64,000 nt of DNA from the NCBI GenBank assembly GCA_958009085.1, contig OY253668.1, forward strand, positions 2,046,001-2,110,000. The letters run 5' to 3'. Shown here in pieces: positions 8,926 through 59,109 of the stretch. A program made the position numbers and the translations under genes. The notes under the pieces were generated by a model, which searched no databases, had not been told where the DNA came from, and saw nothing but the letters and a program-made list of their open reading frames with translations. The stretch comes from Protoeuglena noctilucae (lineage: Eukaryota). Within the stretch, counting starts at the first letter, position 1. The number at the start of each line of letters is the position of its first letter.

Positions 8926-11224
8926 ATGTCGGCGATGCGGCTCGCCGGGGTGTCCCAGCTTGGCGCGGCCCTCGCGAGGAGATGGGGCGCGCCCTCGCCA
9001 TTGCATGGGGACTTCACGACTCGTGCGTTCATGGCGAGCGCGATCAGTCACGAGGGCAAGAGGAAGCCGCTGGCGTCTGTCGTCGGGGCCACGCAGCGCG
9101 CGGTCGAATCAAGTGAACTTTCCGACTCGGAGGGGGGCCGCACGGGCCCGGAGGACCTCGGAGTCGTCGTATCTTCATCGCGTCAATATGTAGTGGAGCA
9201 TATGGGGCTGCTGAAGGCGCGCTTCCCCCGCACTCGCTTCGTCGGTTAGTACGCCCACGACGCTGCGCCCTCTCGCACCCCCGCCTGGTCTCTCGGGCCA
9301 GCAAACACATCCCGGCATTTCCGACCGAGCGCAGAGACCCGCCTGGAGGTAAGCAGCACGGCGATCGCCAAGGGCCGCCCCGTCGTGTGCTGCTTCGTCA
9401 ATGACGACCTGAGCGAGCCGGTGCTGAGGCGCCTGGCGCGCGGGGGCACCAAGCTCATCGCCATGCGCTGCGCGGGGTACGATCGCGTGGACGTCCACGC
9501 CGCCGCTGCGCTGGGGATGCGTGTGGTGCGCGTGCCGACCTACTCCCCACGCGCCGTGGCAGAGCATGCCGTAGGCCTGATGCTGTCTCTCAACCGGTGA
9601 GTGCCTGCCCATGCATGCCGTGGGCCTCATGCCGCCTCTGTCTCTCTGCGTTGCTGCCAGACACGCTTCAGCACTCCCTCCCTCGCTGCCCCGTGCACGT
9701 CCCTTCTCACTGCCCCTTCCGTGCGCAGTCGCATCCACAAGGCGTACGTCCGCACCCGGGAGGGCAATTTCTCCCTCAACGGCCTCGTGGGCTTCAACAT
9801 GAGCGAGTCCACGGTGGGGGTGGTGGGCACGGGGGCCATCGGGGCGGCCCTCTGCCAGATCCTCAAGGCGGGCTTCCAGTGCAGAGTCCTCGCCTACGAC
9901 ATCCAGCCCAGGCGAGCGCACCTGCTGCGAGCATCTAACTAAATTTGCGCGGAGTGGATGCGTGCGCGGATGGCTGCCGGGTGCGATGGGCGTGGCATGG
10001 AGTTGGCCACTGCGGGCGATGGGATGGCGAGCACTGCGCAGTGAGGGGCCGATGAGCAGCGTGGGCGGTCGTGACGATCAAATGTTGTTCGTCGCAGGGA
10101 CGATTTGAAAGCGATAGGCGTGGAGTACCTCCCCATGGATGACGTGCTCACGTGAGCGGCATGCGATGCGTGGTTTGCCGCAGCCGAGCGCCATGGCCCA
10201 TGCATACATGGGCAATGGTGTCACGCATGTGAGTGTGCTTGATTATTGTGAAGGGTGTGTCTGATTGTAACGGATCAATGCCCTGCGCAGGAGGAGCGAC
10301 ATCGTGAGCCTCCACGTGCCTCTGCTCAAGTCCACCGAGCGCATCATCAACCGCGACGCCATCTCCCGCATGGAGAGGGGCGTCATGATCATCAACGTCT
10401 CACGGGGAGGGCTCATCGACACGGGCGAGTGGCGAATGCGCAGGCGATAGTTTACTAGTAGTAGTATGACTGCACTCCACACACCGCAGCGACCATCCAA
10501 CGACCGTCCACGCACCCTCTCACAACATGCACTTATACGTTCACGCACTGCCTTCCGCTGCCCCCTCCGCATCTCATGAGACTGACCTTCTGCCTAGCAG
10601 CCATGACCCGTGCCTCTCGTCGCAGATGCGGTGCTGTGGGGCCTGGAGTCGGGTCAGGTGGGTTCGCTTGGCCTGGATGTCTTCGAACACGAGGAGAATC
10701 TCTTTTTCGAGGATTGGTCGGTGTCAGACAACCGGCGACTGCAGTCCTGGGACAGGCGAGGGCGTGGCAGTAGCCTCATGCTGAGCGGACGGGAACCCAC
10801 AAGGCGCATGCATGCATGTCACTGTGCTGCATGCGCATGTGCCATCCATGCCACGCCAGAATGCCAGAGAGCATCCATGTCACCACGTCTGCAGGCGCCT
10901 GACGCTCCTCACGTCCCTCCCCAACTGCATCGTCACCCCCCACTCGGCCTTCCTCACACGGCAGGCCCTGCAAAACATCGCCAAGGCGAGAGACGCACGT
11001 CACTGTGTGATGACATGTGTTGACCATCACACCCCTTGTTACCGTCACGCTGCCCTTGGTTTGCCTGGCCACAGTAGCCAGGGTGACCACAGCACGGTTC
11101 ATAGTATTTGACTAGTCTCGTGTCGATTCCGCAGACGACCGTGGACAACATCGCGGAATGGGTTGAGGCAGGCAGCGCCACCCCTGCCAAGCCCCTCACC
11201 AACGAGGTGCTGCCACGGGGGTAG
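8926..11224 (+). CDS. D-lactate dehydrogenase (LdhA-type D-2-hydroxyacid dehydrogenase), 8 exons
   Basis: CCFVNDDL, AMRCAGYDRVD, RVPTYSPRAVAEHA, VGVVGTGAIG, SDIVSLHVPL, INVSRGGLID, LDVFEHE, IVTPHSAFLT. Confidence 0.95.
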
Positions 11225-12259
11225 AAGCACAGCTGCAGCAGGAGCGAGGAGAGCGCAAGAGCGAGACAAGAGGCGTCTGTGAGGCAGCGCCGCTGCAACT
11301 GTGCGATGAGGGACGCAGCTTGGTCGTCATGTATTGGAGTCAACGTGGGCGACACACTGGGGGGGTGCGCACGGCCGTGGCTGGCGGCGTGAGCGGCGTG
11401 CGTGCCGCTGCTCAGGGACTCGAGAAGGCGAGGGCAGAGCAAGGGGAGAGACCAGCATACATGCGGCTGCGCATCCCTCAACCTCACCCTCCCTCCCACC
11501 CCACCCATGCAGGCCCGTGACCGTGATCGTGACTTGGCGGAAGCGACACCACGGCATGGCGAAAGGGCCGTTGCTGGGCCGGCTCTCGTCTGACACACTT
11601 GCGAGGCTGCCCCTTGCCACCAGTTGTCACTATCGCTTCCGTTTCCACTAATGACAAGCTGCCCTGCCAGGGGGCACGCATGACTCGTTGACGCGCTGGT
11701 GTTGAATGGCGCGTGCTAGGGCCTCATGGGCGCAAAAAGGGGCCAGCCACGGGCACGCGCTGCCGGCCATGGCGGCAGTCGAGGGCGGCCCAACGCTAAT
11801 TGCCGGAATCACTTGCCAAACACTGTTTGCTAATGATGTCTGAGCTCATTCGCACACCTTGGACAACATGCGAGCGAATGGGGTGCGCGGAGGCTGTAGC
11901 ACCTGGCGTGGAAGGTGTGGCACTGGGGTGACCCTCCCATTGCAAACGGGGCTGGGGGCCCCGCGATGAGGGGACTAGACGAGGGACTGTGCGATAGACA
12001 AGGCAGGGACTGGAAGCCGGACGCCCTCATGGGCCGAGAGGAAAAAAGGCATGGAACCTCCGGGTGCGTCGCTTGCGGCAGCGATCGCCAAAGGGGCGGG
12101 AGAGTGCTCGAGAGCACGCACTGGGAGAGCCTGCAGCGCCGGATGAACGGGCGCAGGACGGGGTTGGGATATGTGGACGTCCCGTTCGCTGCTGGCATGA
12201 CCTCGCGGCCCAGGAACGTGGCGAGGCGCGGCAACGGGGTACACCGTAGGGGTAGTGGG

Positions 12260-57400: not shown

Positions 57401-59109
57401 CTCGTCCTCGAGCTCCCCCTCCTTCCCCACCTCCGCGGCGTGTGCCTCCCTGCGAGATAAGCGACAGAGATGGTCGGCGGGACTGGCACGCCCAGTCAGG
57501 GGAGCGTGCTTGCCGTGCTCGCCCCCTCACCGCAGCCCCGCCACCTCCCGATCCGCCAGCGCAATCTGCGCGTCCATCTCCCGGTTATTCGCCACCTCCT
57601 GCTCTAGGAACTTCTCCTGCTGTGCCAGCTCCGTCTGCACCTCCCGCAAACGTGCCTTGCGCGACGCAAACTGCTCCGACGCGTCCTGGATGGCCTGCAC
57701 GCGAAACAGGAGAGCGCCGCCGCATGTTCGAATCCATCATTTTCAACGCATCGGCGTCCGCGGGGAGCCAGGCGCCCGGCCGCGTCGCAGTGCCTTGCCT
57801 GGTCTCGCTGCCGGACCGTGTCCAGCGCGGCCTCCCACTGCCGCACGAGCTCCTGCCGGTCCGCATGCAGCTGACGGAAGTCCTCCGCCGTCTTGTCCAG
57901 CTGAATCTGAACCCCCTGCGTCTCCGTGACCTCCGCCTCGAGCGCGCCCGACGCCTCGGCCACCTGCCGTGTCACTTTCTCGATCGCCAGGCCGAGGTCG
58001 CGGACCTTCCCGTCATCCTGCTTCGTATACTGCGAACACAGAACCGACAGAAGGCTCCGCATCGCCTGGAAACGGCTTCGCGCGGGCAGGCGAAGGCGGA
58101 AAAGCGTCGCGAGGACAGGCGGGACGGCACGACGGCCCGGCGCGGCCACGCGCCTTCTCCAGCACGGCGTTGTCCTCTTCCTTTTGCCGGGACGCCATCG
58201 CCCACTGCTCCAGCTCCTCCTGGTTCCAGTTCATCTGCAACTTGAACTGGTCCATGCGCTCCGTGCCGCGCTGGATCTCGCTCTGCGCCGTCGTGGCCCT
58301 GCGAATGACGCAAAACGTACCAACGCTTGCGACGGGCAGGTGCGGGGATGCAGACGGCGCGCATGCGACCCGGCGCGGCGTGGCATCCCTGCGAGGCGCT
58401 GTGCAGACCCGCGCCGTCCCGACACAACGGGGGCGCCGCAGTCCCGTGCTGCAAGCGACGCGACATTATAGCGGCATCACTTGGTGGAGTACGCACCGGC
58501 GGTACAGGTCCTCCTGCTCCTTCTGCAAGCGATTGATGTCGACCTCCATGCGGCCCACCTCCCGCTGCGACAGCGCCTTCAAATGCCTCTCCGTGTCGAC
58601 CTCCTTCCGCTTTGTCTCCACGCGCGCCTGAGGACGTGGCGGTGTGTTCGAGAGATCACAGGACGCCCCGCGTGGACGCTCCTTCCGAGCAGGGGAGGCC
58701 GCCCGCGCGAGCTGCGGGCCGGCCCTCGGGGCGCGCCTCGCCTGGGTGTACTGAATTTCCGATTGCACGTTCTTCAGGTGGTCCGACATGATATTGATGC
58801 GGTCCTTGTTCTCGTCCAAAGCGAGCCCTGGGGAACGCCGCGGACAGGAGCAGCTTGCGGGTCTTTCTCGGCCCGACAGTCCCCTCGGGATGAATTAGAG
58901 GATTTATGTGTCCTGATAGTGCCCCTAACAGCGGCGCACGACAGCTCTTCGCGCAGCCAGGCTCGCCCACCTGTCTGTTCAAGCTGCTTCTCCATATGGC
59001 GGACTTGCTCATTGAGTCGCTTGTTCTCCTCGTTCGCGAAGGGCGGGAGGAAGTTGTCCTCGGTCTCCGGGTCCGGCCCGGAGGCCGGAGGGCCTTGCTC
59101 TGGCTGCAT
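54499..59109 (-). CDS. CCDC39: Coiled-coil domain-containing protein 39 (FAP59, axonemal 96-nm ruler)
   Basis: [87 protein letters not shown]. Confidence 0.95.

Follow-up and report, generated by a model that had tools for sequence, protein, structure and literature searches.

GC-AG introns as a frequent class in a GC-rich 64-kb window of Protoeuglena noctilucae

The window analysed here is a 64-kb stretch of contig OY253668.1 of Protoeuglena noctilucae (assembly GCA_958009085.1, positions 2,046,001 to 2,110,000, forward strand), to which all results and coordinates refer. It is GC-rich throughout (66% overall, 64-71% in 4-kb bins) and contains a single 200-base gap, at 31908-32107. Among its intron-bearing genes are those for D-LDH, a Kish/TMEM167 protein, a protein with a DUF3119 domain, a PRDA1-like protein, BASS/SBF-like transporters, a plastid-type ribosomal protein uL4, cyclin B, serine acetyltransferase (SAT) and CCDC39, together with a putative MED7 gene at 17069, an identity taken from a first-pass annotation of this DNA. 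The subject of this report is the 5' splice sites (donors) of these genes, many of which begin with GC instead of GT. The first-pass annotation, made from the nucleotide sequence, had named 13 such donors and had considered GC-AG introns pervasive; at each of the 13 positions the coding strand does read GC, the MED7-like donor lying on the plus strand. The lines of evidence given below indicate that about a third to two fifths of the 5' splice sites in this alga begin with GC.

The most direct line of evidence is provided by RNA. Four RNA runs of one study, labelled as marine metatranscriptomes, contain 37-50% of the sampled words of positions 8900-18899, and four further runs sharing one organism label contain all of them. 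Runs X5 and X6, which contain 7-8% of the words, and X11-X14 form no part of the evidence. RNA contigs of three runs (X1, X2 and X3) and contigs of a DNA-like run (X10, treated as DNA since it contains every sampled word) were aligned to window positions 8800-28799. The RNA contigs match the window without listed differences, with identity of at least 99% in the aligned marine metatranscriptomes. Fifteen joints are listed and 30 more lie outside that list; the RNA counts given here refer to the joints listed. Fourteen of the listed joints are splice joints found only in RNA runs, most of them in X1, X2 and X3 alike and none in X10. Each was slid within its stated ambiguity, and G(T/C)..AG placements on either strand were counted. 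Exactly one such placement exists per joint, which yields six GC-AG and eight GT-AG introns (Table 1). Splicing from a nearby GT donor, which would have undone the first-pass annotation, is not what the contigs display: at the six GC-AG joints, no GT..AG placement fits within the slide.

Four of the six GC-AG joints are the four GC donors that had been proposed for D-LDH (9912, 10425, 10756 and 10986), each joined in three RNA runs, and the exon frames of this gene stay continuous over the RNA joints. A fifth is the donor proposed for the PRDA1-like gene at 19697. The sixth, in the DUF3119 gene, lies outside the 13 donors originally named. The resulting GC-AG share of 6/14 (95% confidence interval 0.18-0.71) comes from an unbiased sample, all RNA being from one study; under a true share of 2%, the probability of at least six GC-AG introns among 14 would be 1.7e-7.

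Two observations on the contigs should be mentioned separately. The one listed joint specific to X10 connects 11503 to 19622, skipping 8118 bases at a depth of 158 with a shorter side of 20 letters; it is probably a repeat or assembly-graph artefact and was set aside. Some X2 contigs diverge from the window a few bases inside introns, for example at 10437, after 13 bases of the GC intron with donor 10425, and at 15522; such contigs may stem from a related strain or from a paralogue, or may be chimeric.

The second line of evidence is the continuity of protein families across the junctions, for which exons were searched singly against Pfam. Beyond the six RNA joints, nine GC-AG introns are placed by matches to profiles or homologues or by exon boundaries. 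In uL4, the upstream exon stops at position 176 of 190 of the Ribosomal_L4 profile, exactly at the claimed donor (33424); the C-terminus obtained by splicing shows no gap against 17 homologues, and reading through the intron yields seven unrelated residues followed by a stop. The uL4 proteins on record do not bear on splicing: P0130, 99% identical, runs colinear with the DNA as an unspliced open frame, and P0131 is likewise an unspliced open frame. Analogously, the SAT junction at 52445 is gap-free against 13 of 16 homologues, namely those spanning it, one of which reaches 85% identity across the searched exon. The SAT intron is 85 nucleotides long, and its retention would shift the frame. Searches of PDB with the short exons beside the SAT and uL4 junctions returned chance matches only.

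Both GC donors that had been placed inside the cyclin box of cyclin B are supported. The exon at 49727-49897 matches Cyclin_N positions 30-86 over its entire length and the next exon begins at 87, so that the profile positions meet exactly at the intron starting from 49726; the exons flanking the 49992 intron map to residues 5-46 and 53-109 of the cyclin B1 chain 9q3n_C, leaving one residue of slack, in a loop. In CCDC39 the profile positions likewise meet exactly at the claimed donor, 58153. The profile is also continuous over two GC-AG introns outside the earlier list and over at least seven GT introns. Kish had been described as having GC donors at both of its introns. At the first (15789), the DUF1242 match starts from the first residue of exon 2; at the second (15557), RNA pieces end at 15405, next to a good acceptor, and a short third exon remains open to a stop. 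For MED7 (17069) the GC dinucleotide stands and the intron is predicted ab initio only; no Pfam family was matched by its single exons at E values up to 1. Altogether, independent support was obtained for 12 of the 13 claimed donors, five by RNA contigs and seven by continuity, without gaps or nearly so, with Pfam profiles, PDB chains or homologues.

Table 1. Introns of the window with individual evidence. The slash in the donor column separates exonic (lower case) from intronic (upper case) bases.
Feature	Position	Strand	Donor	Evidence
GC-AG intron, D-LDH	9912..10097	+	cag/GCGAGC	RNA joint X1, X2, X3; absent from X10; only GC..AG fits the slide
GC-AG intron, D-LDH	10425..10625	+	cgg/GCGAGT	RNA joint, 3 runs
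GC-AG intron, D-LDH	10756..10894	+	cag/GCGAGG	RNA joint, 3 runs
GC-AG intron, D-LDH	10986..11134	+	aag/GCGAGA	RNA joint, 3 runs
GT-AG intron, D-LDH	10152..10290	+		RNA joint, 3 runs
GC-AG intron 1, Kish/TMEM167	15683..15789	-	aag/GCGAGC	ab initio; Pfam DUF1242 positions 5-35 matched by exon 2, starting at its first residue
GC-AG intron 2, Kish/TMEM167	15406..15557	-	gag/GCAAGC	X2, X3 RNA pieces end at 15405; good acceptor; short open third exon to stop
Predicted GC-AG intron, MED7-like gene	17069..17259	+	cag/GCAAGT	ab initio model only
GC-AG intron, DUF3119 gene	17926..18027	-	gag/GCGAGG	RNA joint X1, X3; flanking exons match Pfam DUF3119
GT-AG intron, DUF3119 gene	17674..17787	-		RNA joint
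GT-AG intron, DUF3119 gene	18155..18236	-		RNA joint
GT-AG intron, DUF3119 gene	18394..18649	-		RNA joint X1
GT-AG intron, PRDA1-like gene	18852..18963	+		RNA joint, 3 runs; gene finder wrongly took GC donor 18592
GT-AG intron, PRDA1-like gene	19020..19109	+		RNA joint, 3 runs; gene finder wrongly took GC donor 19010
GT-AG intron, PRDA1-like gene	19243..19380	+		RNA joint
GC-AG intron, PRDA1-like gene	19697..19838	+	aag/GCGAGT	RNA joint, 3 runs
GT-AG intron, PRDA1-like gene	19962..20152	+		RNA joint
GT-AG intron, BASS/SBF-like, in frame	27041-27140	-		Pfam profile continuity
GT-AG intron, BASS/SBF-like, in frame	26504-26692	-		Pfam profile continuity
GT-AG intron, BASS/SBF-like, in frame	26123-26263	-		Pfam profile continuity
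GC-AG intron, plastid-type ribosomal protein uL4	33424..33600	+	aag/GCGAGG	profile end and homologue alignment
GC-AG intron, cyclin B	49898..49992	-	aag/GCACGC	PDB chain mapping of flanking exons
GC-AG intron, cyclin B	49593..49726	-	aag/GCGAGC	Cyclin_N positions 86/87 meet exactly at junction
GC-AG intron, SAT	52445..52529	+	ctg/GCGAGT	homologue alignment
GC-AG intron, CCDC39	58030..58153	-	aag/GCGCGT	Pfam CCDC39 positions 172/173 meet exactly at junction
GC-AG intron, CCDC39, outside earlier list	57695..57798	-	cag/GCAAGG	Pfam CCDC39 continuous, 249/250
GC-AG intron, CCDC39, outside earlier list	58628..58741	-	cag/GCGAGG	Pfam CCDC39 continuous, 80/81

Counting introns with RNA, profile, homologue or exon-boundary evidence, the validated set comprises 35 introns, 15 GC-AG and 20 GT-AG. 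A wider census was made with a two-strand Viterbi gene finder, in which a 3-periodic second-order coding model is combined with a single matrix for GT and GC donors, another for acceptors, and introns modelled explicitly at 45-450 nucleotides. The 14 RNA introns and 13 long open frames served as its seed, and three rounds of self-training followed. The seeded pass gave 19 genes with 65 GT and 45 GC introns, already assigning four GC donors to the seven introns of D-LDH; self-training ended at 26 genes with 84 GT and 44 GC introns, individual genes carrying up to 16 predicted introns. All 13 claimed donors are predicted, 11 of the 14 RNA introns are reproduced exactly (the three misses sit at 5' gene ends), and at least one GC donor is present in 21 of the 24 predicted multi-exon genes, so that, together with the RNA share, the description of GC-AG introns as pervasive holds. 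It should be noted that 44/128 is an estimate of about a third and not a measurement, because the gene finder makes known errors: where it calls GC donors at 18592 and 19010, the RNA instead has GT donors at 18852 and 19020, and its acceptors at 18488 and 15192 (the latter for Kish intron 2) are wrong. Of its 44 GC introns, 14 belong to the validated set and 2 are those contradicted by RNA, which leaves 28, MED7 at 17069 among them, as predictions. GT is the majority donor in every count (GC in 6/14 RNA, 15/35 validated and 44/128 predicted introns), and in all three sets from this window GC donors exceed a tenth of introns.

Decoy controls indicate that the gain from admitting GC is specific. 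Restricted to GT donors, the gene finder reaches a score of 1898.6 nats, splits the window into 36 genes and recovers 4 of the 14 RNA introns, in agreement with the earlier expectation that standard predictors would mis-annotate these genes. Allowing GT and GC raises the score to 2454.6 nats with 26 genes and 11 RNA introns recovered, a gain of 556 nats, versus gains of 148 for the GG decoy (2046.1 nats, 29 genes) and 199 for the GA decoy (2097.7 nats, 30 genes), each of which recovers the same 4 of 14 RNA introns as GT only. When all four donors compete, 79 GT, 43 GC, 6 GG and 2 GA donors are chosen in 24 genes, with 11 of 14 RNA introns recovered.

Donors of both kinds share one consensus, exonic (C/A)AG followed by intronic G(T/C)GAG, and the acceptors are uniform, being rich in pyrimidines and having CAG at their end. 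Most GC donors had been said to follow exonic AG and to continue GCGAG or GCAAG, and each of the two features is found in 13 of the 15 validated ones; a purine (R) at +3 and G at +5 are present in all 15. The departures among the claimed donors are D-LDH 10425 (cgg) and SAT 52445 (ctg), where exonic AG is missing, and 49992 and 58153, which continue GCACG and GCGCG, respectively; the others all read AG followed by GCGAG or GCAAG. The proposal that pairing potential is stronger elsewhere in GC donors is borne out as well. RAG at +3 to +5 is present in 13/15 validated GC versus 9/20 GT donors (Fisher p=0.016), and the mean number of consensus-matching positions is 5.4 versus 4.75 (Mann-Whitney p=0.008). 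In the predicted set, RAG is found in 37/44 GC versus 45/84 GT donors (p=0.0008) and exonic AG in 38/44 versus 49/84 (p=0.0013), the validated counts for exonic AG being 13/15 and 14/20 (p=0.42).

At +3, GT donors carry G in 98% of the predicted and in 19 of the 20 validated introns; the house consensus is therefore GTGAG, unlike the GTAAG/GTRAGT of many eukaryotes. A at +3 is nearly confined to GC donors (6/44 versus 1/84 predicted, p=0.007; 3/15 versus 1/20 validated, p=0.29). Median intron lengths are 134 nucleotides for GC and 141 for GT introns, and no U12-like motif occurs among the gene-finder donors listed. In intron interiors C/(C+T) is 0.63, and the share of C at +2 is lower, 0.34-0.43 (odds ratio 0.31-0.44); T is therefore still preferred at +2.

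Several neighbouring genes yielded observations of their own. RNA pieces at 15039-15405, part of longer X2 and X3 contigs, contain the last Kish exon and adjoin the predicted 5'-most coding exon of the gene that follows on this strand, whose coiled-coil product may be the Nnf1 of the first-pass annotation. The gene finder merged the two genes (14475-15826, minus strand), and their transcripts probably overlap or read through. A gene at 12260-13715 (minus strand) encodes two RRM domains; RNA pieces at 11718-12437 and 12734-13128 put the acceptor of its 3'-most predicted intron (12425-12734) some 13-14 nucleotides away from the predicted one, and the frame predicted for its last exon may be incorrect. 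A mitochondrial-carrier gene with three Mito_carr repeats (41055-42817, plus strand) was split in two by the gene finder at 42432/42587, where an intron was probably missed. Two SBF_like transporter paralogues, at 20622-22214 and 25342-27599, lie about 3 kb apart on the minus strand, and in both the last profile-matching exon covers Pfam positions 256-309. Within the second, a 418-residue BASS/SBF-like open frame (25910-27163, minus strand) includes three stop-free, in-frame GT-AG introns, detected by continuity of the Pfam profile. The protein on record for this DNA (P0001, 407 residues, 100% identical) is the unspliced frame, and a protein search found no close relative of the open frame.

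The taxonomic position of the host matters for the comparisons below. The top named matches of the CCDC39 exon are green algae (Pedinophyceae sp. YPF-701 at 48%; Chlamydomonadales, Tetraselmis and Trebouxia at 43-46%), and CCDC39 of the haptophyte Chrysochromulina is 32% identical to it. The uL4 of the window is of plastid type, nuclear and intron-bearing; its top named matches are green algae at 56-60%, with environmental relatives at 64-70%. Judged from these protein similarities, the organism is a chlorophyte, and the searched collection contains no named genome closely related to it. The GC content of 66% and the marine RNA runs had first suggested a haptophyte, Emiliania/Gephyrocapsa; that assignment was rejected, the best named CCDC39 and uL4 matches being green algae and no haptophyte being close. 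A metagenome scan for loci of relatives, meant for a comparison of orthologous introns, returned 80 loci at no more than 61% identity, none of them close enough to count as a relative of this alga.

The nearest precedents are other GC-rich algae. According to Feldmesser et al. (2014, BMC Genomics 15:148, PMC4028052), the haptophyte Emiliania huxleyi, with a genome of 65% GC, uses 56-65% GC versus 35-40% GT donors and about 4% GA. In that study some of the GC donors were verified by reverse-transcription PCR, they were attributed to high GC content, and GT-biased gene models were found to be wrong (PMC4028052). The window shares with that system a GC-rich genome, many GC donors, an invariant AG acceptor, verification by RNA, faulty GT-biased models and many retained or readable introns. 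It differs in that GC donors are a minority here (about 34-43%) and a majority of about 60% there, in its green-algal rather than haptophyte host, and in that GA donors are not established here, having been picked only twice, as a decoy. In the pelagophytes Aureococcus anophagefferens and Pelagomonas calceolata, a preprint (bioRxiv 10.1101/2024.10.30.620910) gives 14-17% predicted GC-AG introns, attributed to GC content; works cited there place the share at 0.3-2% in plants and animals and 4% in Cyanidioschyzon. Like these pelagophytes, the organism studied here is a marine GC-rich alga with an unusually high GC-AG share. Unlike them, it is a green alga with up to 16 predicted introns in a gene, whereas the pelagophytes are stramenopiles for which the preprint reports a lower, prediction-based share and 0.19-0.92 introns per gene. 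For green algae, a full-text literature search, outside which most subscription journals lie, yielded no account of a high GC-AG share. Pervasive GC-AG splicing is, in other words, already known in GC-rich algae as a kind, and the green-algal lineage is where no report was found.

Two further systems are instructive. Dinoflagellate introns make wide use of GC and GA donors and keep G at +1 and AG at the acceptor; the relaxed +2 position, the conserved +1 G and the AG acceptor recur in the window, whereas wide use of GA is not established here. Ordinary U2-type GC-AG introns, known from animals, plants and Chlamydomonas, match the other donor positions better than GT introns do. The introns of the window resemble them in their GC..AG termini, in their U2-type consensus and in this compensation, evident from the RAG and consensus-match counts given above; they differ in a frequency 15 to 100 times higher, spread across nearly every gene. 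The genome of Chlamydomonas reinhardtii is about 64% GC, close to the window. Its expressed-sequence-tag-supported introns number 532 GC-AG versus 25,053 GT-AG, or 2.1% (PMC2846911 Table 2).

How could so many GC donors coexist with a preference for T at +2? In our opinion, they are likely to be ordinary introns of the major spliceosome (U2-type) in which C at +2 is tolerated at strong sites, with GC-biased change supplying such sites. Donor positions -3 to +6 pair with the 5' end of U1 small nuclear RNA (snRNA), before U6 and U5 come into play. Having C at +2 would remove one base pair with U1, and later contacts with U6, a loss that could be tolerated where exonic AG and intronic RAG at +3 to +5 give sufficient pairing. 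GC-biased mutation or gene conversion would change T to C at such strong donors, weak selection would leave T somewhat favoured at +2, and the outcome would be a mixed GT/GC splice code misread by GT-only gene predictors. In human, about 15-18% of +2T>C variants retain some normal splicing, according to PMC13129441. The first-pass annotation had offered GC-biased erosion of the +2 T as one possible cause; the C/(C+T) of intron interiors makes that plausible, and the Chlamydomonas counts indicate that such erosion is not sufficient alone.

Several points weigh against this explanation or limit the numbers behind it. C. reinhardtii has a similar GC content and only 2.1% GC-AG introns, so GC content alone fails to predict the share, and the spliceosomal machinery is taken as unchanged by assumption. 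Two of the eight GC calls made by the gene finder within the spans of listed RNA joints are contradicted by RNA. The validated set is enriched for GC, the claimed sites having been targeted. Moreover, the scope is a single 64-kb window, with RNA from a single study.

It is also possible, in our view considerably less probable, that this green-algal lineage independently altered the spliceosomal reading of +2, so that GC and GT became near-equivalent donors, through a U1 5' end able to pair with C or U at +2 or through changes in U6, U1C, Luc7 or Prp8. Such a change would fit the share of 34-43% here versus 2.1% in Chlamydomonas, a 15- to 20-fold difference at similar GC content, the spread of GC donors over 21 of 24 predicted multi-exon genes, and the two validated GC donors without RAG at +3 to +5 (GCACGC at 49992 and GCGCGT at 58153). 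It fits poorly with the bias towards T at +2 relative to intron composition, and with the stronger consensus that GC donors need compared with GT donors, as is the case with unchanged spliceosomes. No Rfam family reached its gathering score anywhere in the 64-kb window, hence no snRNA was found there.

A selective role for GC donors as deliberately weak sites allowing regulated splicing or intron retention, as proposed in animals and plants, seems to us very improbable. E. huxleyi is described as pairing many GC donors with widespread intron retention (PMC4028052), PMC2490688 reports GC enrichment in alternatively spliced genes, and many introns of the window are stop-free in frame, such as the three in the BASS open frame. 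Nevertheless, the stronger consensus of GC donors points to efficient splicing and not to weak sites, GC donors occur in housekeeping genes of every kind, and the contigs give no retention or isoform ratios. Least credible of all is that the GC donors are artefacts, that is, misplaced junctions with a nearby GT in use, assembly errors at +2, or U12-type introns. The gene finder did make the two false GC calls where RNA has GT, and X10 may be source data of the window assembly and so not an independent check on base calls. Against this stand the six RNA joints that admit no GT..AG placement, seven further junctions fixed to the residue by profiles or homologues (with the one residue of slack at cyclin B 49992), RNA contigs that match the window without listed differences, donors of the form GCGAG or GCAAG, unlike the U12 motif, and the choice of 43 GC donors versus 6 GG and 2 GA decoys. 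The artefact reading is refuted for 12 of the 13 claimed sites, MED7 being the exception.

These results have consequences for annotation and for the study of splice-site recognition. Annotation that assumes GT donors is badly wrong for this organism, and the proteins on record are unspliced frames that translate introns. Earlier work on a haptophyte and on pelagophytes had linked pervasive GC-AG splicing to the GC content of the genome; a green alga with about a third GC-AG introns, set beside Chlamydomonas with about 2%, shows that GC content is not the whole story. Tolerance at +2 thereby becomes a testable question within one phylum. Should the reading of +2 prove to be altered in this lineage, the effects of mutation pressure and of a changed spliceosome could be told apart within Viridiplantae, since the two algae are alike in GC content and yet only about 2% of Chlamydomonas introns are GC-AG.

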